Shown: positions 1 through 39,417 of the stretch, in pieces
How positions within the stretch are numbered: position 1 is the stretch's first letter
Layout: each line of letters begins with the position of its first letter
From: a virus
Taxonomy: Duplodnaviria > Caudoviricetes
Direction: 5' to 3' (one strand)
IMG/VR virus record: IMGVR_UViG_3300017739_000010
Span: 1-59,530 of that record
Length of the DNA stretch: 59,530 nucleotides
The notes under the pieces: model-generated
Database searches by the model: none
What the model saw: the letters and a program-made list of their open reading frames with translations, nothing else
Told to the model about the DNA's origin: nothing
Translations under genes and position numbers: made by a program

Positions 1-36
1 GAAGCACCTCCGTTTGATTATTAAAAAAGAACAATC

Positions 37-432
37 ATGAAAAAAATTTTACTATTTGAAGAGTTTATTAACGAGAATAAACAAGCAGAAAAAGTAATAA
101 AAAAAGCCCTTCCAGGATATGCATGGGAACATTATGGTTCTCTTGATTCTGATGAAATAGAGGCAGATGGTTTTGCTGGAGCTGAAACTTTTGGAGTAGC
201 CCTAGATGAACTTGATGGTATGGAATTAATGGTACAAATCTATTCAGCAGACGGATTGAGACATACTCATTTTGGTTTTAACTTTGATGGAATGCCAGTA
301 TCTACTTCATTACACTCAAGCGCTGAAAGAAGAAGTATTGATACTACTGGATTGGATTCTCCAATAGACATTAAAAAACTAAATTCAAGTGTATTAGACT
401 CTGTAATATCAGATATTAAAGATACTCTTTAA
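37..432 (+). CDS. putative internal head (packaged) protein
   Basis: N-terminus MKKILLFEEFINE resembles the T4 capsid-targeting sequence MKTYQEFIAE; the motif recurs in the 50.7-59.5 kb cluster. Confidence 0.6.
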   Translation: MKKILLFEEFINENKQAEKVIKKALPGYAWEHYGSLDSDEIEADGFAGAETFGVALDELDGMELMVQIYSADGLRHTHFGFNFDGMPVSTSLHSSAERRSIDTTGLDSPIDIKKLNSSVLDSVISDIKDTL

Positions 433-448
433 AAAAAGAACCCTAACC

Positions 449-514
449 ATGAATTGTAATTGTAAAGAATGTAAATGCGAAGGGTCTTGTAATTGCTCTT
501 GTTGCGATTGCTAA
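449..514 (+). CDS. 21-aa metallothionein-like Cys-rich micropeptide (absent from ORF track)
   Basis: Hand translation MNCNCKECKCEGSCNCSCCDC*; 9 Cys in CxC/CC motifs; A-rich leader with A at -3; fills the gap between a gene and a terminator. Confidence 0.75.
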   Translation: MNCNCKECKCEGSCNCSCCDC

Positions 515-530
515 GCAGGCACACATTTTA

Positions 531-557
531 GAAACTTTTAGAGAAGTCTATGTATAA
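531..557 (+). promoter_or_regulatory. GAAAC-N17-TATAA promoter-like motif upstream of dCMP deaminase
   Basis: GAAAC 531-535, TATAA 553-557; same arrangement at 46280, 46529 and 45680 (minus strand). Confidence 0.55.
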
Positions 558-580
558 TTAGTGAATACATAGACTTTTTT
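544..580 (+). terminator. intrinsic terminator-like hairpin
   Basis: Perfect 12-bp inverted repeat AAGTCTATGTAT / ATACATAGACTT, 9-nt loop, T-run to 580. Confidence 0.7.
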
Positions 581-583
581 AGT

Positions 584-1090
584 ATGCCAAGAATACCGGT
601 TGATTTAATTTACATGCAGATGGCTTATCAAGTAGCCAAGCTCTCGTACGCTAAACGTAGGCGCGTTGGTTGTATTATCGTGAAAGATACACAGGTAATT
701 GCAACTGGATACAACGGTACGCCACATGGCTTTGATAACGACTGTGAAGAGATACAGGTTAGAGATATAGAGAACGAAAATCATAAGAAAGTATTAGAGG
801 AAAAGGGTTATGAATGTGAAGACACTTGTTGTTCTAAAGAAGTAACTAAAAGAGAAGTTCTACACGCAGAGTCTAACGCTCTAGCAAAAGTAAGTCGTTC
901 ATCCATCTCATCAGATGGTGCAGATATGTATATCACTACATGTCCATGTTTCGACTGTGCTAAATTGATTATTCAAGCCGGTATTAAAAGAGTATTCTTC
1001 TCGGAAGATTATAGAGATATGTCAGGTATTGCACTCTTAGAGAAAGCAGGTATTGAGGTAAAAGAAGTTATATGTTGGAACGGGGAGTAA
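584..1090 (+). CDS. cd: dCMP deaminase
   Basis: GYNGTP, HAESN and PCFDC zinc motifs. Confidence 0.95.
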   Translation: MPRIPVDLIYMQMAYQVAKLSYAKRRRVGCIIVKDTQVIATGYNGTPHGFDNDCEEIQVRDIENENHKKVLEEKGYECEDTCCSKEVTKREVLHAESNALAKVSRSSISSDGADMYITTCPCFDCAKLIIQAGIKRVFFSEDYRDMSGIALLEKAGIEVKEVICWNGE

Positions 1091-2805
1091 CTCAAATTAT
1101 TGACGAGGCTCTAGTCCAGAATGTATTCGGAACTGATTTCCAATTTAGACCAGGACAAAGAGAGGTTGTGGAAGCTATCTGTAATCACTATCTTCAAGAT
1201 CCAGAAGGGACAATTATCTTAGATGCCCCAACTGGAAGCGGTAAATCACTAATTGCTATGTGGTCCGCGCACATTCTAAAAGAACTCGGTAACCGAGGCT
1301 ATCTCGTCACATCTGATTTAATGCTACAAGATCAGTATGAAGAAGACTTTAATAAATTTAAACTTAATTGGCCTTCAGTAAGAGGAGTAGACAATTATGA
1401 ATGTGATGTCAATGGTCTGACATTCTCTCTTGCAGACTGTAAGATGAAAGGTATTAGTTATGAAGCAGCTGAGAATCTAACTTGCTGGAACACCTGTGGG
1501 TATCTACAGGCTAGACGGCGCGCGAAGGAGCTACCTGTAGCTCTCTTCAACTATTCATATTATCTAATACAAAGGAATTATGTAGAAGACAAGATGATAG
1601 ATCAGGGTAAAGAGATACCATTTCCTAAGAGAGACTTTGTATTCTTTGATGAAGCACATAAGGTAGATAATATTGTACAGGGACACTTCTCACCTAGAAT
1701 AGACAGAGGAACAACTAAGATATTTAGGGAAGTAAACAGATTTGTACAGAAACATGGTATCGATGCTGCCTGGGTAACCGAGAACAGAATAGCAAGTATC
1801 GTCGACCGCTTAATGCGGGAAGACGACCACCAGGAGTTAATGAGGCTCATCGGAGAGTTCAGAGGTATTGCTGTGGTATATCGAAAAGTACAGGGCGCAG
1901 CCCTCAAACAGTCAAAGTCCAGATTTAAGCAGACTGATGTCCCTAAAGAGTGGCAGACTTTTTTTGGACGAATGGATCGATTGAAAGATATATGGTGTAA
2001 GTTTGACGACTATCATGATATAATTAAAGAACTTGGAAATGATGCAATCGTTATTAAGAGATCTGAAGTTGAAACGCAATTCTTATGTTTAGAAGAAGCA
2101 CTAATGATTGAAAAATTCTTACAGAATAAAAGTGGTTTTAAAGTCTTTATGTCTGCAACATTAGGTGATATTAGATCTTTTGCAAAACATACTAAAATGG
2201 GGAATGCAAAGGTAATTAGAATGGATAACAAATTTTCCTACAAAAAATCCCCCGTGGTTTTCATCAATAGGCACAAATTGTCTTTTAGAGAACGCGAACA
2301 AAATCTCCCCAAGGTCATAAAAGTTCTTGACAAGATCTTAGACAAACACAAAGGACAAAGTGGAATTATTCACGCCGGTTCCTATGACTTCATGAACTAC
2401 ATCAATAATCAATCTAAACATAGGTCTAATCTAATAACCTATGATGTAGCTAAAGAAAGATCTGGTGCAATTAGAAACTTTAATGAATTAGATGGTAAAA
2501 TACTTGTAGGTCCTTCCCTGTTGGAAGGTTTAGACCTTAAAGATGATAAATCTAGATTTCAAATCTTCTTTAAAGTACCATATCCATCATTGAATGACCC
2601 ACTTGTAAAAGCAAAGATGTCAGCGTTTGCTGATTGGTATGATTGGAAAACAGGCATTGCAATACAACAAGGAGCAGGAAGATCTATTAGATCTAAGGAT
2701 GATTGGGCAATAACATATATTTTAGATGCGTGCTTTAGAAGCTTGATAAATAAACAGGACTTCTTTCCACCATCATTTAAAGAAAGAATAAAAACAATTT
2801 ACTAA
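1072..2805 (+). CDS. DinG/YoaA-like SF2 helicase
   Basis: Q motif FRPGQ, Walker A APTGSGKS, DEAH, EGLDL, KVPYP, QGAGRSIRS; Cys cluster at the Fe-S domain position. Confidence 0.9.
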   Translation: MLERGVTQIIDEALVQNVFGTDFQFRPGQREVVEAICNHYLQDPEGTIILDAPTGSGKSLIAMWSAHILKELGNRGYLVTSDLMLQDQYEEDFNKFKLNWPSVRGVDNYECDVNGLTFSLADCKMKGISYEAAENLTCWNTCGYLQARRRAKELPVALFNYSYYLIQRNYVEDKMIDQGKEIPFPKRDFVFFDEAHKVDNIVQGHFSPRIDRGTTKIFREVNRFVQKHGIDAAWVTENRIASIVDRLMREDDHQELMRLIGEFRGIAVVYRKVQGAALKQSKSRFKQTDVPKEWQTFFGRMDRLKDIWCKFDDYHDIIKELGNDAIVIKRSEVETQFLCLEEALMIEKFLQNKSGFKVFMSATLGDIRSFAKHTKMGNAKVIRMDNKFSYKKSPVVFINRHKLSFREREQNLPKVIKVLDKILDKHKGQSGIIHAGSYDFMNYINNQSKHRSNLITYDVAKERSGAIRNFNELDGKILVGPSLLEGLDLKDDKSRFQIFFKVPYPSLNDPLVKAKMSAFADWYDWKTGIAIQQGAGRSIRSKDDWAITYILDACFRSLINKQDFFPPSFKERIKTIY

Positions 2806-31158: not shown

Positions 31159-34100
31159 ATGGCAAATATAAGTTTTCAACTTAATACTACAACTGGATTT
31201 TCTGATGCTGCCAGCGCGATAGCAAACTGGGGCACGGGAAGTGTAGTTACCGCGTGGGTAATTGACTCAGGCAGCGGGCAGGTTAGTGCAAATGACATCG
31301 TTTATCAAAATAACGATGGCGTACCTAACCAAAACGACGGTACTCTATCTAATCCATTCCAAGGGGGACTATATTATTATGCGTTTGAACAACTAGATGG
31401 TAGTATTGCTGCAGCACAAATAGATAATACCGGTTCAATATCTTCCTCGGTAATCACGACTACAACTACAAGCTCTACAACCGCGCCGGCTACTCCAACT
31501 TATACAATTCTTGTAACAGACGCGGCTGGTAACACGCCTTCTAATAACGAATTTAACGAGGGTGCTGTTGTAAATGTTACGATTCAAAGTGGTGGAGTAC
31601 TAGGTAATACACTTGACTACGCTGTAAGTGGCACTGCGACCGAGAATGATTTTACAGCAAACGGGTGGCCATTAGGAGTTGGCTTAACTCAGGGCACTCT
31701 TAATTTTGCGAATGCGGATACGGTACCTTTACAATTTACAATTTTAAATGATTTAAGTAGCTCTGAAGGCCCCGAGAATTTAATTATTACTTTAGATCCT
31801 CAAGATAATAACGGTAATAGTGCTGGACAAACAGTAACTATTAACATTCTAGATACAAGTGCAAACCAACCTCCAGCTTTAAGTGCAGTAACTGCCACAG
31901 TAACTCAAAATGGTACAGGAAATGATTTCGTAGATATTGATTTTTCTCAAGGTGCCGTTGACCCAGAGTCAGATCCTCTAACTTTTTATATTCAATCATT
32001 GCCATCTGGTGGTGGTACTCTTAGAGATCCACAGGCTCCAACTACAGATTTAACTACTAATGATTTACCATATCAAATTCAGAGTAGTGGATATGAAATA
32101 AGATATTACCCTGGTACAACTTTTGTTGGGGGTAATGCTGTTTTTAATTGGTATGCTGAAGATGGAATAAGTACTCAAAATGGAACCGCGTCAGCTACTG
32201 TAACTGTTAACGCTCCACAGAACCAAGCTCCGGTTGCTGCTAATGTCTCTCCAGCTGCTTTTCAAGCTGGAACTGTAGGCATACAAAAATTCTTTACCAG
32301 AAGCGCAACTGACGAAGATGTTTCTACATTAACTTTTAATTGGTCTGATGCTAATGGAACTACTCTATCTGGTGGATTAGCTGATATAAACCCTACTTTA
32401 TTGTATGGTCAGTTAACTCAGGCTTCTGGAGAAACTTTTCTTTATACAACAAACACTACACTCGGACCAAACGATCCAAGTGCATCAGAGACTTTATTTT
32501 ACTATACGGCTACTGATAGCCAAGGTGAAACATCAGCGGCTGCTCAAGTACAATTTCAATTATTGCCTCCTGGAAACGTGGCGCCATCTTTCGATGTAAC
32601 TCCACCAAGCACGCCAATACAAATTACTAATGGGGTTGCTTATATCCAACAAGGCATTACAGCAACGGACCCAGAAGGAAATACAGTAACTATTTCTGTA
32701 CAAAATGTTGGTGGTACTGATACTGGTGCTACAGCAACATTTAATGGTGGCAACTTAACCGTTACAGGTTCTAGCGCAGGTTCTGTTTCTGTAACTTTAA
32801 GGGCGACAGATCAATTTAGCGCTTTCGATGCTGCTAACGATATTACATACAACTTTACGACAGTGGCAGTTGCTTATAGAGGTGTTAGAAAATCTGCATT
32901 CTCAAACTCAGATACTGCTGCATGTTCTTTAGAAAGACCTGCTCAAGGATTTTACTATTATTCTACAGGTACTGGTGGAACTACATTCTTAAGTAATTTA
33001 GCCGCAGGTGCGTTCTTATACTCAGATACTGGTTTACAGAATAAAATTATCCCGAGTAGCGCTAGCTTCCCTTGGATTTCTGTAGAAGAGACAGTCGGTA
33101 ATACTCCCACGGTTAAAGCATTAAAATTAAATGCTAGTGATGGAGCAATAGAGGAGGTTTTAAACTGTACAGTTACTGGAGGTAATGCATGGCCTATCTT
33201 AGTTAGATATAGTCAAAATGCCACCGTATTCTGTGATGGTGTTTATGAAGAGACAGAAGCTTGGCAAAATATTGGTGAGACTGCAACTATAGTAGATGTT
33301 GTATCTGCAGGTGGTCAATTATTCTCATCAGAGTATTATGCGAATCAATACTTAAACAATAATGGCATTTATGCACCATCGTCTTTAATTTTATTAAATG
33401 GTGTTTATACACAAGATGGTGTTACAGATGTAGATGTAGAGAGAAATTATTTTAACTATTCAGGTGGTTGGACTGCGAACCCTGCACCATTACTTAACGA
33501 TCCAACCAACGATCCAAACGTGCTCGCGCAAGTAAATGGAATGTATGAATGTGCTCCTGATATTGTATACTCTACAAAATCTATTGATGTCTTCTGGAAC
33601 AGCTCGGAGCCAACTAATGTTAGCGCATTCTGTGCTCCTCAAAATGCTGTAGGCTGGAACACAAACAATCTAGGTAGTACTTATGATACTATTACTTTAT
33701 ATTACAGACAGGATGTAAATGATAGCACTAACTGGAATCTTTTAGATCTTGCAAAAAACCAAATATTGGTTTATATTTCTCAAACAGCGGCTGAAAACCA
33801 AGACTACAATTTAGTACAACCTAGTTCAGTTTTGTTATCTAACAACGGGGAAGGTTTCGTATTATTTGATAAAGATGATGATACAGGGTATTCAGGTTCA
33901 TATAGGTGGTACGCTTTCAGCCCAGATGATAATAACAATGCAACATTAGATAATTTATTAGAGGTTGCAGACAGTGGATCTGTTTACGGACAATGTGAAG
34001 ATCAGATAACTGGTCCTCTAGCAGATTATATTAGGCCTGAGGTTTGGAATATAAACACTAATAACCTTAATATAGTAATTGGAAACGAAGCAGGCTCAGT

Positions 34101-37100
34101 TTACTTTGCATTCTATGGATGTGACGTTAAATTAGATCCTGGAATTCCTGGAGGTGAGCCTTACTACCCAATGTATATTGTGGATGGTATGATAGAGAGA
34201 ATACAGCTTCTAGATGCTGGTACTTCATATATTAATACTTTTGTCCAAGCGATTACAAATAACACGTTAAACACAAGGGCTCAAGTTAAAGTAGGTGGAG
34301 AATGTTTAACTTACACAAATGCTATTGTAGCAACTAACATCGAAGATGCTGTCAACATCATGCAATCTGAGTTAGATTTAGTTGGTGGCGGGGATGTTGT
34401 AAGGGCTGTTTCTATTAATGCGGTAGACTTAGGTCTTGGAAGTGAAGCTGTAGTATCTTACAATCCTCACCCTATGTCGTTGAGCGGTCAACAAGATTTA
34501 ATATGCTACAATTGTAAAGCTAATTCTAATAATTGGGCTACTTATGAGTTTCCAATTATGGACGATGCTCAGATTTTAAATAGAACTTTACCTAATTTTA
34601 ATTTAGAAGAAAATTATATATTAGATAACGTATCTAAGCCTTTATTAAGAACAAACCCAAAATTATCAACAAATGCTAAAATTGTAGCTAATAGTACTGA
34701 TAAAATTTTCATAGAGTCTATTGATGCAACTAAAGAGTTGGCTTCTGTTGAGTATAAGAAGTGGGAGCTTAATCCAAATGGACAATACTCACAAGACTTA
34801 TATAAGTTTTACAAAAGTAGTTCCACTCCGGCGAGTATAATGTATGCTACAAGAGTTGATTCTTCAGATTTTGCTGTTCAAGAATCCTATGATAAACAAA
34901 TTGAAGAAGTTTATCATTATGGAACAACTTACAATTATTCCAAGCTACATAGTGAAGACCTTAGAATTTTAGCTCCTATTTGGTTAGATAAAGATATTCC
35001 TAAGAGATTTGTTGTATTTAGAGTAAACGACCCTGTAGGTGAAGCTGATTTTGATACAAGAGGTAGTTTTGATAACTTACAAGAGTTTTTAAAGAATTCT
35101 GAAATTGTTAAGACTTTTGATTTAACCACTAACTCTTCATTAGGTAAATATATTAGAAACCATGTAAACTCTGAGTCTTTCCCAAGAGGTCCAATACAGT
35201 TTAACTTTGAAAAGAGAGAAAAGAGTAATTTTAAAGGTATTGATTTAGAGAAGGGTGGATTTACGGCTAAGGGTGAATATTTACACAAAGATTTCGTTTA
35301 TACAGATGGTCCTTTAATTTCTGCTAATGCTACTATTACAGATGGCTTTGAAAGAAATAAATTAGCATGTGCAAACCTACTTAATTTAGAATTCTTGTTT
35401 GACGATAACAACGCTTCTGATTATTCTATTAATAGATATTTTGGTCTTTATGTAAACGATATTGACTCTGGCTATGGTAATCTTAGATCTGCAGAAAATG
35501 GTAATTTAATTTTTGAGTCATTAAACTCATATATTAATGAAGACCCAAAGTCTGCAATTCCTGCATTTAAACAAATATCTGATACTCCAACTTTGGGTTA
35601 CTTGTCAATTAGTGATGAGTTTTACAAAATATCCTCAAAGGCAAAATATGATGTAGATAAACTTAATTTAATCGTAGAAGATGGTGCTAATGCAATTCCA
35701 GCAGAAATTAAGACAGCTCCAAATGGAAAATCTATTGATATTGTCAAGAGAGATGATGCTGGTTTTGATTTTGTTAAAAGTACAATTACTAGAGCGCCCC
35801 AGGTAAATGATAGGTTTATCGTATTTGAGTCTAGAGAGTCTTCATACTCTATTAAATTCTTAAGGTTAATTCCTAATGAGACGTGGCAGCTCAAGCTGGT
35901 GATAGCTGGTAATGTAACAAACATAAATATAGCTACACAGGGAAGTATAGAAGCTACAGGTCTTGTGTTAAATGCCGCATTAGTTCAATATCCTAATATA
36001 AGCGCTTCTTGGGATGCTAATGCTAAAAAGATTTACATTACAGAGGTTAATGCTACTTTAGATGATTTACAGGTTGAATTTACTCCCGTAATACCACAGT
36101 CTTCAAGTACTGTTACTAAAGTTGAGCAGATTCAAACTTCTGTTAATCTAGATAATTCTACATTCTTTGCTACGTTTAGTTTACCTGCTGGAACTTTCAG
36201 CGGTCAACTATTCTCAGCACAAGGTACAAACTCTGAGATTGCAAAAGCAATAGCAGGTTGTATCAATAATAGTTCAATTAACTTTGATGTTGTAATAGCA
36301 GACGGTGCTTCAGAATTCTATATAAAATCTAAAATTGCAGGTTACAAGCTTCTACAATCCGGCGTTTTAGTCCCTAACGCTAACGCTGAAGATTTTATAT
36401 CCTTTGAAAACTTAGACGAGAGAACAACTCTAAACCCAAAGGGATTACTAGGGTTAGACAACAGTATAAGAACATTAAATTCCGTCCACTTTATGAGCGG
36501 CGGTAATTCTGGTGGTAAGTCTGTATTAGTGTCACAAGATTCAGTAGCTGATGTTGTGGTGGGAGATATGTTAGCAACCGGATCTGCCGGAACTTTCAAT
36601 ATGGTAATTGATATTGTTGATGATATTGCAACACCAAACACTATATACAAGAAATTAGTTTTAGATAAAGTAAATGTATTAGAAAGTGGAGAACAAAAAA
36701 TATATGCGGAGAACATTGCTAAATTAGGTTTATTCTCAGCTTATGATATTCATGATATGAACTTCGATTTCTATGATATATCAAACTCTGAGCTTAAAGA
36801 ATTAGAATATGAAACTTCTGCAAATATTAACTATGAGCCGGAAAGAAGTTCTACAAATACATTAGAGGTTTTCGGAACAGATTATGATATTCAAGATGTT
36901 TACAGCTACTTTACAGGTATTAGTGATACTCTACCCGAAGAAACATTAGATGCATACAACGAGGTTAAATTATTCAGCGAGTATGATAGGCTACAAGAAA
37001 ATAATATCAAAGAATTTGCTGTAAGATCTAGAACAGTTCCTAACATTAATAAATGGGTATTAAAAGATACTTTAACTGTAAGAGAACAACCATATTATTT

Positions 37101-39417
37101 AAACGCCAATGAAGCTTTTGGTAGAACTAATTTTTCACCAGACTTTAACGCGGTTGGTAGAGATAGGTTGGGCATGACGCATGAGTGGTTCTATATGGAC
37201 AACGTGCCTAAATATCTAAACTATAATCAGTTCAACAACACGTTTAGCTACGTTAATTTCTTAAATGATTTTAAATTAACACCTGAACATTTTAAAAGTA
37301 CTTCTTACAATTATTTTGATAGATTCATGATAACTGAAGGGTTTGAAACCAAAAACAATAACGGTTACTCTTCTTTTATTAAAACTAATCTTGAGAAAAA
37401 ATATACATTAGTTAATGGTGGTAATGATATTGCTTTTGCAAATACTGTTTTCAAAGGTATTAAAGTAGACTTTAAGAATAGAAAAGAGTTTTTAAATAAT
37501 AAAGCGACTGAATTTGTTAAATCATCTGAATTCAACGGCTATAAGTTTAGTACACTTGTGTTGGTAAGGAGTGGTAGTGAAACTAATTCGGTTGACTATG
37601 AGGTGATTCAAAATAAGAAGTTCAAATTTGTTGTATTTTTAATTACATTATCTATGGATGACTTATGGATTGATGGTGCTTTAAACAGAAAACTGTTGTA
37701 TGAGATGAATCATAGTTTCGTGTGGAATCATGAGACTCAAAATTTCTCATATTCAGATGTTAACCTAACAGGAGCATTAAATTTAAACGATATTAATTTT
37801 ACAGATCCATCTTCTAATGATTACAGGGTTGCAAAAGGAATTATACATAGTAACGGTGGAGAACCTCAATTCTTAGATCAGATTAATTCAGATGAAGATG
37901 ATAACTTTGGGTTCTTACAAATTAAAGTTTCTACTTCTAGTGGAGATGTTGTATTCAACTTAGAGATTGAATCTGTAGATGACCAGGACCAAATAACATT
38001 AGCTAGCGATCCTCAAGATATAAATGGCAATCCGGTTAATGTTTCTAACATAGCTGGTTACATTCAAAACAGCGCAGAGTATACTTACAAGGGTGGTGGA
38101 AAGAACGCATTTACGGCTATCTTAGACCAACTAGCTGTAGGTTCTGTTTCTAACTTGTTAAAGTTAAATGACGGAGAGATTACATATACTACCATTGAGG
38201 AAGATGGTCAAGCTGTAAACAACAGGTTCGAGATTGAATTTGAGAATGGAGTGGAGATAATTAAACAGTCTAGTTTATTGACTGTTGCGGATGAGGATAA
38301 ACCTAAGACTTTTAAATTAAAGCAAGGTGATATTGGCTACAATATAGTGTCCGGTGGAGCTTACTATCCATTCTTAATTAGACATAATGGGTATTACACA
38401 GTAGATACAATGCCTGTTGTAACCTTTACTGATACTTACTCACATTTTAAGACTAATACTCTTCAAACAACTTTAAACACTCAAGAGTTATCATTTGAAG
38501 AGCCTATGTATAAACACTCTTTAACTAGTGCAGAAGAAATTAAATTAGCTAGAGACTACTATAAGAGATATAACAGGTGTAAGACTGCATTTAATTTAGG
38601 CTTCATCCAAGATTATGGAGCACATGATGCTGCATGGGGTCTAATTAAAAATCACTTCTATAGAAAGGTAAATGAGTCTAATCCATCTGGTGTGACAAAA
38701 TTATCTACTTCTACTGATAAACTACCTCTTTACCCATTAATCGGTGAGGTTGCGATAGATAAAAAAGATGTAAATGTATTTAAGTCCTCTTGGGATAAAA
38801 ACTACTATACTAGGTCTTTATCTGGTGGATTAACAGAAGCAGTTCCAGGTACTTTTGAAACTAAAGAGGAAAGATCTTACTTAGGTTCAACTATTATGAA
38901 AGTAAAGGATAGCTATAGTATGATTAACTTTACTACTCAGACTGTAAAAACACAAGAGGAACAAGATTTAATTCTAGCTAACAATAATAATACAACAGAC
39001 GTTGTGGTATTTGAAGATGACAATAATGTATACATTGATTTTTACATTACTACAACTGTTAAAAAACTATTAAGCGATGATGGTGTTCTAAACTCTATTA
39101 ATGCGTTTGTATCTGCTGCAGATTCTGCTGGAGATAAAACAACAATAAAGGATGACGCTCTACTTTATGTGGAAAACAACCTACTCAACACGTTTAATTT
39201 AGACATGATAAAAATTTACACTAGCAGAGTGAAGGGTATTTCTTCAGAAATTCTATCTTCTGCTAACATTAACAATTTAGATGACGGTGGTTATATGAAT
39301 GACACAAACTTTACGTTTAAGTCACATGAACAAAAGCCCCTTAATTTTAGAATGATATATAATAAAAGATTAGGTTATTCTTATAGAATTAGACCTATGA
39401 TAAAAATAAAGTCATAA
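31159..39417 (+). CDS. giant virion protein: Calx-beta / cadherin-like Ig adhesin N-terminus plus structural C-terminus
   Basis: ILNDLSSSEGPENL (Calx-beta-like); NQPP/NQAP/NVAP..DPE cadherin-like repeats; Thr-rich linker. Confidence 0.7.
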   Translation: MANISFQLNTTTGFSDAASAIANWGTGSVVTAWVIDSGSGQVSANDIVYQNNDGVPNQNDGTLSNPFQGGLYYYAFEQLDGSIAAAQIDNTGSISSSVITTTTTSSTTAPATPTYTILVTDAAGNTPSNNEFNEGAVVNVTIQSGGVLGNTLDYAVSGTATENDFTANGWPLGVGLTQGTLNFANADTVPLQFTILNDLSSSEGPENLIITLDPQDNNGNSAGQTVTINILDTSANQPPALSAVTATVTQNGTGNDFVDIDFSQGAVDPESDPLTFYIQSLPSGGGTLRDPQAPTTDLTTNDLPYQIQSSGYEIRYYPGTTFVGGNAVFNWYAEDGISTQNGTASATVTVNAPQNQAPVAANVSPAAFQAGTVGIQKFFTRSATDEDVSTLTFNWSDANGTTLSGGLADINPTLLYGQLTQASGETFLYTTNTTLGPNDPSASETLFYYTATDSQGETSAAAQVQFQLLPPGNVAPSFDVTPPSTPIQITNGVAYIQQGITATDPEGNTVTISVQNVGGTDTGATATFNGGNLTVTGSSAGSVSVTLRATDQFSAFDAANDITYNFTTVAVAYRGVRKSAFSNSDTAACSLERPAQGFYYYSTGTGGTTFLSNLAAGAFLYSDTGLQNKIIPSSASFPWISVEETVGNTPTVKALKLNASDGAIEEVLNCTVTGGNAWPILVRYSQNATVFCDGVYEETEAWQNIGETATIVDVVSAGGQLFSSEYYANQYLNNNGIYAPSSLILLNGVYTQDGVTDVDVERNYFNYSGGWTANPAPLLNDPTNDPNVLAQVNGMYECAPDIVYSTKSIDVFWNSSEPTNVSAFCAPQNAVGWNTNNLGSTYDTITLYYRQDVNDSTNWNLLDLAKNQILVYISQTAAENQDYNLVQPSSVLLSNNGEGFVLFDKDDDTGYSGSYRWYAFSPDDNNNATLDNLLEVADSGSVYGQCEDQITGPLADYIRPEVWNINTNNLNIVIGNEAGSVYFAFYGCDVKLDPGIPGGEPYYPMYIVDGMIERIQLLDAGTSYINTFVQAITNNTLNTRAQVKVGGECLTYTNAIVATNIEDAVNIMQSELDLVGGGDVVRAVSINAVDLGLGSEAVVSYNPHPMSLSGQQDLICYNCKANSNNWATYEFPIMDDAQILNRTLPNFNLEENYILDNVSKPLLRTNPKLSTNAKIVANSTDKIFIESIDATKELASVEYKKWELNPNGQYSQDLYKFYKSSSTPASIMYATRVDSSDFAVQESYDKQIEEVYHYGTTYNYSKLHSEDLRILAPIWLDKDIPKRFVVFRVNDPVGEADFDTRGSFDNLQEFLKNSEIVKTFDLTTNSSLGKYIRNHVNSESFPRGPIQFNFEKREKSNFKGIDLEKGGFTAKGEYLHKDFVYTDGPLISANATITDGFERNKLACANLLNLEFLFDDNNASDYSINRYFGLYVNDIDSGYGNLRSAENGNLIFESLNSYINEDPKSAIPAFKQISDTPTLGYLSISDEFYKISSKAKYDVDKLNLIVEDGANAIPAEIKTAPNGKSIDIVKRDDAGFDFVKSTITRAPQVNDRFIVFESRESSYSIKFLRLIPNETWQLKLVIAGNVTNINIATQGSIEATGLVLNAALVQYPNISASWDANAKKIYITEVNATLDDLQVEFTPVIPQSSSTVTKVEQIQTSVNLDNSTFFATFSLPAGTFSGQLFSAQGTNSEIAKAIAGCINNSSINFDVVIADGASEFYIKSKIAGYKLLQSGVLVPNANAEDFISFENLDERTTLNPKGLLGLDNSIRTLNSVHFMSGGNSGGKSVLVSQDSVADVVVGDMLATGSAGTFNMVIDIVDDIATPNTIYKKLVLDKVNVLESGEQKIYAENIAKLGLFSAYDIHDMNFDFYDISNSELKELEYETSANINYEPERSSTNTLEVFGTDYDIQDVYSYFTGISDTLPEETLDAYNEVKLFSEYDRLQENNIKEFAVRSRTVPNINKWVLKDTLTVREQPYYLNANEAFGRTNFSPDFNAVGRDRLGMTHEWFYMDNVPKYLNYNQFNNTFSYVNFLNDFKLTPEHFKSTSYNYFDRFMITEGFETKNNNGYSSFIKTNLEKKYTLVNGGNDIAFANTVFKGIKVDFKNRKEFLNNKATEFVKSSEFNGYKFSTLVLVRSGSETNSVDYEVIQNKKFKFVVFLITLSMDDLWIDGALNRKLLYEMNHSFVWNHETQNFSYSDVNLTGALNLNDINFTDPSSNDYRVAKGIIHSNGGEPQFLDQINSDEDDNFGFLQIKVSTSSGDVVFNLEIESVDDQDQITLASDPQDINGNPVNVSNIAGYIQNSAEYTYKGGGKNAFTAILDQLAVGSVSNLLKLNDGEITYTTIEEDGQAVNNRFEIEFENGVEIIKQSSLLTVADEDKPKTFKLKQGDIGYNIVSGGAYYPFLIRHNGYYTVDTMPVVTFTDTYSHFKTNTLQTTLNTQELSFEEPMYKHSLTSAEEIKLARDYYKRYNRCKTAFNLGFIQDYGAHDAAWGLIKNHFYRKVNESNPSGVTKLSTSTDKLPLYPLIGEVAIDKKDVNVFKSSWDKNYYTRSLSGGLTEAVPGTFETKEERSYLGSTIMKVKDSYSMINFTTQTVKTQEEQDLILANNNNTTDVVVFEDDNNVYIDFYITTTVKKLLSDDGVLNSINAFVSAADSAGDKTTIKDDALLYVENNLLNTFNLDMIKIYTSRVKGISSEILSSANINNLDDGGYMNDTNFTFKSHEQKPLNFRMIYNKRLGYSYRIRPMIKIKS
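39354..39362 (+). promoter_or_regulatory. late-promoter-like GATATATAA
   Basis: Within the 3' end of the upstream gene, 67 nt before ATG 39421. Confidence 0.5.

Follow-up and report, generated by a model that had tools for sequence, protein, structure and literature searches.

In the present study, we describe a micro-gene at positions 449–514 of a 59.5-kb viral contig from IMG/VR (record IMGVR_UViG_3300017739_000010; the whole stretch of 59,530 nucleotides (nt) is hereafter called the window). It encodes a peptide of 21 amino acids (aa), nine of which are cysteines. We are highly confident that this small open reading frame (micro-ORF) is a real gene. As judged from sequence, it represents a new family that is catalogued in none of Pfam, NCBIfam, and PHROGs, and that is metallothionein-like by definition-level features. 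We see an even chance that the peptide is a cytoplasmic metal-thiolate micro-protein, acting as a metallothionein-like buffer, store, or donor. A more specific proposal is made tentatively: the family may be the smallest gene-encoded metallothionein, carried on an insert of approximately 80 nt that marine myoviruses and streamlined Flavobacteriia exchange, and may provide a viral buffer or store for Zn, Cd, or Cu.

The nine-cysteine ORF

The ORF starts with ATG at 449, ends with TAA at 512–514, and encodes MNCNCKECKCEGSCNCSCCDC, in which Cys occupies residues 3, 5, 8, 10, 14, 16, 18, 19, and 21 (C-x-C-x2-C-x-C-x3-C-x-C-x-C-C-x-C). The peptide has a mass of approximately 2 kDa and consists of 43% Cys arranged in C-x-C, C-x-x-C, and C-C motifs, with a single CC pair at residues 18–19 and no aromatic residue or His. 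Since TGT and TGC are mixed among the Cys codons (five and four, respectively), the ORF is not a simple DNA repeat. Both the ORF and its mixed codons had been pointed out in an earlier reading of the window from its letters (hereafter the sequence-only reading), and both can be read directly from the DNA.

The Cys content of this ORF is far beyond that of simulated sequences. Among the 340 ATG-started ORFs of 15–40 aa in the six frames of the whole window, the runner-up had four Cys. When 100 windows were simulated with a first-order Markov model, no small ORF exceeded six Cys, and the binomial probability of at least nine TGY among 20 codons was 7e-10. A chance origin of the micro-ORF is excluded.

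Family size and sequence conservation

The family was delineated by pattern scans that differed in what was fixed. In the main scan of viral contigs, only ATGAA and nine TGY codons at the observed spacing were fixed and the stop was left free; at least 120 contigs matched. All 120 matches listed encode 20–23 aa (21 aa in 114), and in every one of them the unforced stop lies 0–2 codons past the last Cys (TAA in 112, TAG in 8). These matches comprise 76 distinct peptides. A bias-free scan required the start, the five C-terminal Cys, and the stop, and left the four N-terminal Cys free; among its hits (at least 120 loci), all four free Cys were present in 118 of the 120 listed. Only nine matches were obtained when the register of this second pattern was broken by an additional N. 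The two listed loci without all four (L262 and L263) carry C5Y through a single TGT-to-TAT change, which may be a tolerated variant or mark a decaying copy. A first scan, for which the C-terminal eight residues and the stop were required, returned two new genuine members in unrelated contigs (L083 and L084), two known members, and two chance frames.

When metagenome contigs were scanned with no start codon required, 124 matches were obtained, namely, 77 TGY microsatellites and 47 genuine members. In 46 of the 47 genuine loci, an ATG precedes the first Cys by 0–4 codons (M, MK, MD, ME, MN, MNK, and others) or, in two cases, an extra module is present. None of the 47 contains an aromatic residue or His. 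The two longer variants (L284:11199-11309, + strand; L325:514-621, − strand) encode 36–37 aa with 13 Cys and have an additional N-terminal C-x-C-x2-C-x-C before the standard 19-residue core, which suggests growth by module duplication.

Codon usage was analyzed in 83 distinct viral DNAs. The nine Cys columns are invariant in the alignment of these 83 members, whereas each of them contains both TGT and TGC, and a spanning tree of the DNAs has 114 switches between these two codons. At the free codons, 214 changes are non-synonymous and 100 are synonymous, a synonymous share of 0.318 versus 0.213 expected. Between the Cys lie small, polar residues (N, D, K, G, S, and T), several of which are conserved: G11 in 70 members, S13 in 71, N/D at position 20 in 76, and N/D/E at position 4 in 82. 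His was found in two cases, at position 20. The family consensus is M-K-C-N-C-K-x-C-N-C-G-x-S-C-x-C-x-C-C-x-C. The family is under purifying selection focused on Cys, the start, and the stop. Conservation of Cys together with synonymous drift was the check suggested in the sequence-only reading, and the unforced Cys and the TGT/TGC switches provide it.

Insertion site in the window lineage

The deaminase gene downstream of the micro-gene served as a synteny anchor. A search with the deaminase identified 107 related viral loci, of which 80 (59–95% identity) were kept. The 500 nt upstream of the deaminase were examined; two of the 80 loci had less than 100 nt there, leaving 78 evaluable. The micro-ORF is present in two of these 78 relatives, L005 and L008, with the product MNCECQVCKCGTSCNCSCCDC in both. 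The DNA alignment of the window with L005 and L008, read by eye, contains five replacements, all at non-Cys positions, and four synonymous changes, of which two fall in Cys codons. All three sequences share an identical 3′ half of the ORF and identical 16 nt past its stop, and the TGTAA repeats of the window are not retained in L005 and L008.

Four relatives (L002, L003, L004, and L011) show the site with nothing inserted. Their upstream gene ends with ...GAAGCACCTCC.TT.GA.TA. TAA, directly followed by GCAGGCACAC, and the order is upstream TAA, GCAGGCACACATTTTAGAAACTTT, hairpin, and deaminase. In L005, L008, and the window, approximately 80 nt comprising the A-rich lead, the ORF, and its TAA lie exactly between the upstream TAA and GCAGGC. 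From this comparison of loci, we conclude that the micro-gene is a mobile insert of approximately 80 nt. The gap between the upstream TAA and the GCAGGCACAC spacer forms a hot spot at which miniature cassettes are inserted. In L007 and L016, it is occupied by another ORF, of 20 codons, MKKAKQIFWEYWIKPWKPAY (translated by eye), and other relatives have yet other genes upstream of the deaminase. The features of the site in the window are listed in Table 1.

Table 1. Features at the beginning of the window, around the insertion site
Feature	Position	Strand	Description
End of conserved upstream gene	1..24	+	Truncated by contig start; TAA at 22-24; matches gene end in L002, L003, L004, and L011
First inserted cassette	25..432	+	A-rich lead AAAAAGAAC at 24-32 and 131-aa ORF 37..432, function unknown
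A-rich lead of micro-gene cassette	433..448	+	AAAAAGAAC at 433-441; no Shine-Dalgarno; same lead in L005 and L008
Micro-gene	449..514	+	21 codons and TAA; product MNCNCKECKCEGSCNCSCCDC
Conserved spacer	515..538	+	GCAGGCACACATTTTAGAAACTTT; directly after upstream stop in insert-free relatives
Hairpin and T-run	539..581	+	Intrinsic-terminator-like; also in relatives without the micro-ORF
dCMP/cytidine deaminase	584..1090	+	Synteny anchor; PF00383, E = 4.4e-24

The sequence-only reading had placed a terminator after the ORF. A strong hairpin with a T-run is indeed located there; however, it belongs to the ancestral site rather than to the micro-gene. It comprises 17 pairs, 11 of which form a perfect core (545-555/565-575), has its T-run at 575-580, and folds with −22.8 kcal/mol (z = −5.7; 0 of 200 shuffles fold as well). 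A simple terminator scan did not list it, probably because of its 9-nt loop and AT-rich stem. Among the relatives, the hairpin precedes the deaminase in all 21 that were listed, including 19 without the micro-ORF. Since it is present in these relatives, it predates the micro-gene and is independent of it. An attenuator controlling the deaminase was considered and rejected because the hairpin exists without the ORF and there is no alternative fold.

The 131-aa ORF of the first cassette has no Pfam family. Among viral contigs, it occurs elsewhere only in L082, with 83% identity and different flanking genes, and it is absent from both micro-ORF carriers, L005 and L008. Both cassettes at this site start with AAAAAGAAC. 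However, we do not claim a general motif because this lead is not enriched across the window (3 matches versus 2.3 expected).

The regions upstream of genes in the window are generally A-rich. The 25 nt preceding each of 40 long genes showed no Shine-Dalgarno signal. The upstream score of the micro-ORF lies at the 87th percentile of 1377 + strand ATGs and is the fifth lowest when compared with the 40 gene starts. A contig of the same phage lineage, L213, was binned into a Flavobacteriaceae metagenome-assembled genome (MAG), which is a weak hint about the host. The absence of a Shine-Dalgarno signal and this binning fit a Bacteroidetes-type host.

The window was estimated by CheckV to be 21% complete and has a G+C content of approximately 35%. 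It contains a myovirus-type baseplate wedge gene (phrog_219), and no tRNA genes were found in it. At least 77% of sampled words from its first 1200 bases occur in 14 DNA runs labelled as seawater or viral metagenome. Further neighbors of the micro-gene include a DUF6445 protein and a DinG/FANCJ-type helicase (Helicase_C_2, weak DEAD_2; PDB matches to FANCJ and DinG). The first and second motifs of this helicase flank four Cys. The structural region contains a single ORF of 2752 aa (31159-39417, + strand), preceded by an ORF of 1238 aa (phrog_29329, unknown function).

Genomic contexts in phages

Outside the window lineage, the family occurs in many AT-rich viral contexts. For our neighbor tables, we considered the three nearest ORFs of at least 50 aa on each side and took the longest one, so a neighbor is not always the adjacent gene. 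The 120 viral loci listed show 54 types of neighbor pairs. In all 120, the micro-ORF lies on the strand of the upstream gene. Recurrent neighbors are a flavoprotein (27 loci), the gp44 clamp loader (19), a Gp23-type major capsid protein (16, upstream), DNA primase (14), and a holin (5); large unknown proteins also occur. The next ORF of at least 40 aa starts no more than 10 nt away in 36 of the listed loci and 11–40 nt away in 39 more, and the other 45 have no same-strand ORF within 40 nt downstream. PDB searches with three common neighbors (429, 444, and 482 aa) gave no match.

The sequence-only reading had also raised the idea that the peptide donates metal to the products of neighboring genes. 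The deaminase-helicase block lacks the micro-ORF in 76 of the 78 relatives, and therefore this idea is unsupported; there is no synteny support for it, and the family appears in dozens of other contexts among the 120 listed loci.

The link to the flavoprotein is confined to one lineage (the protein has PF07992 at its N-terminus, E = 2.7e-9, residues 3–43; phrog_12409, ‘dehydrogenase’). In the corresponding 27 listed loci, which include L083, L093, L095, L099, L102, L104, L114, and L115, a short hairpin lies 5–15 nt past the stop of the micro-ORF and is followed by a terminator and the flavoprotein gene. This hairpin has an invariant 9-nt loop, ATTCATAGC, and a covarying 5-bp stem (GACTG/CAGTC, GTTCG/CGAAC, GTCCG/CGGAC, GCTCG/CGAGC, and GACAG/CTGTC). 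The 9-mer ATTCATAGC has 45 copies in the 120 listed loci, 18 of them outside those hairpins. Rfam gave no matches for seven family loci, and the hairpin with the ATTCATAGC loop may be an undescribed phage RNA element.

The GenBank genomes nearest to one family locus are those of Flavobacterium phage immuto, Methylophilales phage Melnitz, and Pelagibacter phage HTVC008M. Among GenBank phages, blastn with two 66-nt family members gave no match, and tblastn with the 21-aa peptide also gave none, the query probably being masked by the low-complexity filter.

Cellular copies

A scan of one genome per prokaryotic species matched nine stretches, seven of which are genuine. All seven are in MAGs or single-amplified genomes of marine Flavobacteriia/Bacteroidetes; L213 is one of them. 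An eighth cellular copy was found via synteny. Among 401 sampled family genomes, two contained genuine copies, a third was doubtful, and ten had only TGT repeats. Of the genomes in two Flavobacteriia genera, 2 of 29 and 2 of 27, respectively, contained the micro-ORF.

In six of the eight cellular loci, tiny membrane proteins are encoded directly after the micro-ORF, and stop and start codons overlap in the cellular operons (TAAATG and TAATG). The operon loci are L210:3698-3856 (−), L214:2924-3112 (−), L274, L211:1939-2261 (−), and L222:1154-1497 (−). The membrane micro-proteins have 41–69 aa with one or two helices and are followed by a secreted VOC/glyoxalase protein or another signal-peptide protein. 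One genus has three genomes in which the micro-ORF is accompanied by a 53-aa two-helix membrane protein, whereas its other four genomes with the adjacent VOC/glyoxalase gene have neither. A large protein search identified no homologue of the 53-aa protein. In L273 and L274, an in-frame ATG 42 nt upstream would add a hydrophobic N-terminus of 14 residues (MKKLIL...). This extension is closed by stops in a third genome of the genus and its divergence consists mostly of amino-acid changes. It is probably non-coding, although it might yield a membrane-anchored or exported form.

Comparison with metallothioneins

A metallothionein is operationally a protein smaller than approximately 10 kDa that is rich in Cys, with C-x-C, C-x-x-C, or C-C motifs at conserved positions and scarce aromatic residues and His, and that has a high metal content and the spectroscopic signature of metal-thiolate clusters. 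The size, Cys content and motifs, and scarcity of aromatic residues and His of the present family agree with this description. The family shares with metallothioneins in general a tiny size, Cys motifs, polar spacers, Cys-focused selection, and modular growth. It differs from them in lacking a significant match, in being a phage-borne mobile insert, and in its link to membrane proteins in cells. The sequence-only reading had named the peptide a micro-metallothionein. What stands is a real, conserved gene with a composition that fits the operational definition, whereas no metallothionein family was matched significantly.

Closest among the metallothioneins are plant Ec-1 (Metallothio_2) and the fungal Cu-thioneins, which are also very small, with approximately 25 residues and seven Cys. 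We know of no metallothionein shorter than the present 21-aa family. The bacterial proteins SmtA/BmtA, MymT, and Pseudomonas PmtA resemble it as small, Cys-rich, cytoplasmic metal binders. SmtA/BmtA, MymT, and PmtA have approximately 50–80 residues, use His as well as Cys as ligands, and adopt a zinc-finger-like fold.

A likeness to the β-domain of vertebrate metallothioneins (nine Cys, three-metal cluster) had also been noted in the sequence-only reading, based on the nine Cys and on the local stretch CNCKECKC versus CKCKECKC. However, this stretch is variable in the phage family, C-[NDE]-C-[KQ]-x-C-[NKG]-C, and no PDB chain of a vertebrate metallothionein was matched at E up to 10. Cys spacing and length in the vertebrate β-domain also differ from those of the phage family. 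The likeness is convergent at best and not homology.

Annotated viral metallothioneins are mentioned in reports on viromes from fumaroles (PMC13317609) and contaminated soil (PMC12917443). Our literature search on metallothioneins and phages, the coverage of which did not extend to supplements and subscription journals, found no 21-residue phage family.

A proposed metal-thiolate function and its weaknesses

We propose the following mechanism by analogy. The insert of approximately 80 nt lies just after the stop codon of a same-strand gene and, because of this placement, the micro-gene would be read from the transcript of that upstream gene, which is a late structural gene at many myovirus loci. 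Since the peptide has no leader or signal sequence, it would be expected to stay in the reducing cytoplasm. Nine thiols in such an environment are expected to take up Zn, Cu(I), or Cd. The peptide is too short for a hydrophobic core and, thus, could fold only by wrapping its thiolates around soft metal ions; by analogy, each peptide may hold approximately three Zn(II)/Cd(II) or several Cu(I). The use of all nine Cys as cluster ligands would fit selection on every Cys. Working like a minimal metallothionein, the product would then serve the infected cell as a high-affinity buffer, store, or donor of metal. We infer the translation of the peptide, its metal binding, its stoichiometry, and its physiological role.

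However, a number of results weigh against this proposal. Database searches provided no significant match. The best Pfam hit was Metallothio_2 (PF01439), with E of 1.3 or worse in 16 of the 83 members, and the sole match in a PDB profile search at E up to 10 was 2kak (wheat Ec-1) at E = 4.1. These are the only database likenesses and, although both are far from significant, both are to metallothioneins, which favors the proposal. No Pfam family was assigned to the window peptide, no other metallothionein family of Pfam was matched among the 83 members, and PHROGs and NCBIfam matched none of the 83. A phmmer search with a natural 36-aa variant against 1.84 billion representatives gave no matches at E up to 0.001, and in an ESM Atlas search with the 21-residue part, the top score (0.80) did not rise above chance level. 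An AlphaFold2 model of the 36-aa variant without metals was uninformative, with a predicted local distance difference test (pLDDT) score of 54.

The genomic evidence also includes adverse points. The distribution of the micro-gene is patchy, which shows that it is dispensable. Within its own lineage, 2 of 78 evaluable relatives have it; for the two genera, the counts are 2 of 29 and 2 of 27 genomes; and the Cys pattern was found in 0 of 5 related GenBank records (KC465899, MZ577095, MW353177, OQ984149, and LR756500). Among the phage neighbors inspected, there was no conserved link to metal transporters or regulators. Chromosomal copies lead small operons of tiny membrane proteins, which a simple metal-buffer model does not predict. 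When contigs from four RNA-library runs were compared with window positions 1–1200, only the deaminase was covered at 100% identity and most of 1–440 was bare; the micro-ORF was covered by a 56-nt piece of one chimeric contig with five differences. This coverage neither demonstrates nor excludes transcription. Moreover, conserved Cys with variable spacers would be equally expected of an ORF that acts as a sensor through its Cys codons.

Alternative explanations

We weighed a metal-stabilized knuckle that, instead of buffering metal, docks on a host or phage protein, a membrane micro-protein, or a nucleic acid and acts as a regulator or inhibitor. Small phage proteins that bind host machinery are common, and the conserved non-Cys positions (G11, S13, N/D20, and N/D/E4) suggest a defined surface. 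The cellular loci provide a potential partner: the micro-ORF is present and absent together with the 53-aa two-helix membrane protein (three genomes with both, four with neither), and it precedes tiny membrane proteins in two further genomes. However, the variety of neighbor pairs at the listed phage loci leaves no partner that is conserved across them, and with 9 of 21 residues buried as ligands, little surface would be left for docking. We consider this explanation unlikely.

A Cys-codon sensor would not depend on the peptide at all. A shortage of Cys-tRNA would stall ribosomes at the nine Cys codons and thereby tune the expression of the next gene. A precedent exists in mycobacteria, in which leaderless short polycysteine ORFs are reported to be Cys-responsive attenuators (10.1101/834739); the threshold given there is a run of at least two consecutive Cys codons, which the one CC pair of the micro-ORF reaches. 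Like those ORFs, the micro-ORF is short, unannotated, and Cys-rich, heads or lies between co-directional genes, and often abuts the next start. Its position on the strand of the upstream gene, the short distance to the next ORF at many listed phage loci, its place as the first ORF of small cellular operons with overlapping stop and start codons, and the retention of Cys while spacers vary would all be in line with a sensor. In contrast to the mycobacterial ORFs, the present family keeps a fixed length, Cys spacing, and some non-Cys residues such as G11 and S13, as well as the stop position, across unrelated contexts, none of which a codon counter needs, and it has no connection with Cys metabolism. 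Downstream of it lies a terminator, or genes (deaminase, capsid-region, clamp loader, primase, and flavoprotein) that are unrelated to each other and to sulfur metabolism. The terminator and spacer of the window are present in relatives without the ORF, and no segment of the ORF competes for pairing in the lowest-energy fold. Furthermore, no same-strand ORF follows within 40 nt at 45 of the listed loci, and consecutive Cys codons are limited to that one pair. We give the sensor little credence.

The peptide might instead be a redox or iron-sulfur (Fe-S) micro-protein that holds an Fe-S cluster, buffers thiols and disulfides, or scavenges oxidants during infection. Nine thiols in 21 residues and the PF07992-type flavoprotein as the next large gene in 27 of the 120 listed loci are compatible with such a role. 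However, the hairpin and terminator separate the micro-ORF from the flavoprotein gene, the link is confined to one lineage, and no Fe-S assembly or thioredoxin-type genes were seen adjoining. C-x-C and C-C spacing is typical of metallothioneins and not of ferredoxin-type motifs. The prospects of a redox role appear to be poor.

An exported or enzyme-modified peptide, such as a bacteriocin, a toxin, or a ribosomally synthesized and post-translationally modified peptide (RiPP), is very improbable. The tiny membrane proteins directly downstream in most cellular loci could serve as immunity or export partners, and the upstream in-frame ATG in two genomes offers a hydrophobic extension of 14 residues. 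However, stops interrupt that extension in a third genome of the genus, and starts that precede the first Cys by 0–4 codons (46 of 47 metagenome members and all 120 listed viral members) leave no leader or signal. The neighbors scanned included no maturase, radical-SAM enzyme, protease, or ABC exporter, and NCBIfam, which contains many models of RiPP precursors, matched none of the 83 members.

That there is no gene, only a chance frame or a DNA- or RNA-level element, is close to refuted: the identical 3′ half and following 16 nt in the window, L005, and L008, a small hairpin that can form within the ORF, and the lack of direct proof of translation are outweighed by the retention of frame, start, stop, and Cys codons despite heavy nucleotide turnover in unrelated contexts and by the TGTAA repeats of the window not being retained in L005 and L008.

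Biological significance

The micro-gene is a strongly selected gene that lies below the length threshold of standard gene callers; it has no entry in family libraries and is present in at least 120 viral contigs. Even if a metal-thiolate function is wrong, its strict conservation still demands a function. The insertion site illustrates how phages exchange very small genes in the form of stop-to-stop cassettes. The peptide is an easy synthetic target and, if it binds metal, the lower size limit of genetically encoded metal-thiolate cluster proteins would move down to 21 residues. If the proposal of a viral metal buffer or store is true, trace-metal handling would join the functions of abundant marine phage groups, and the family would represent a new class of viral auxiliary genes.

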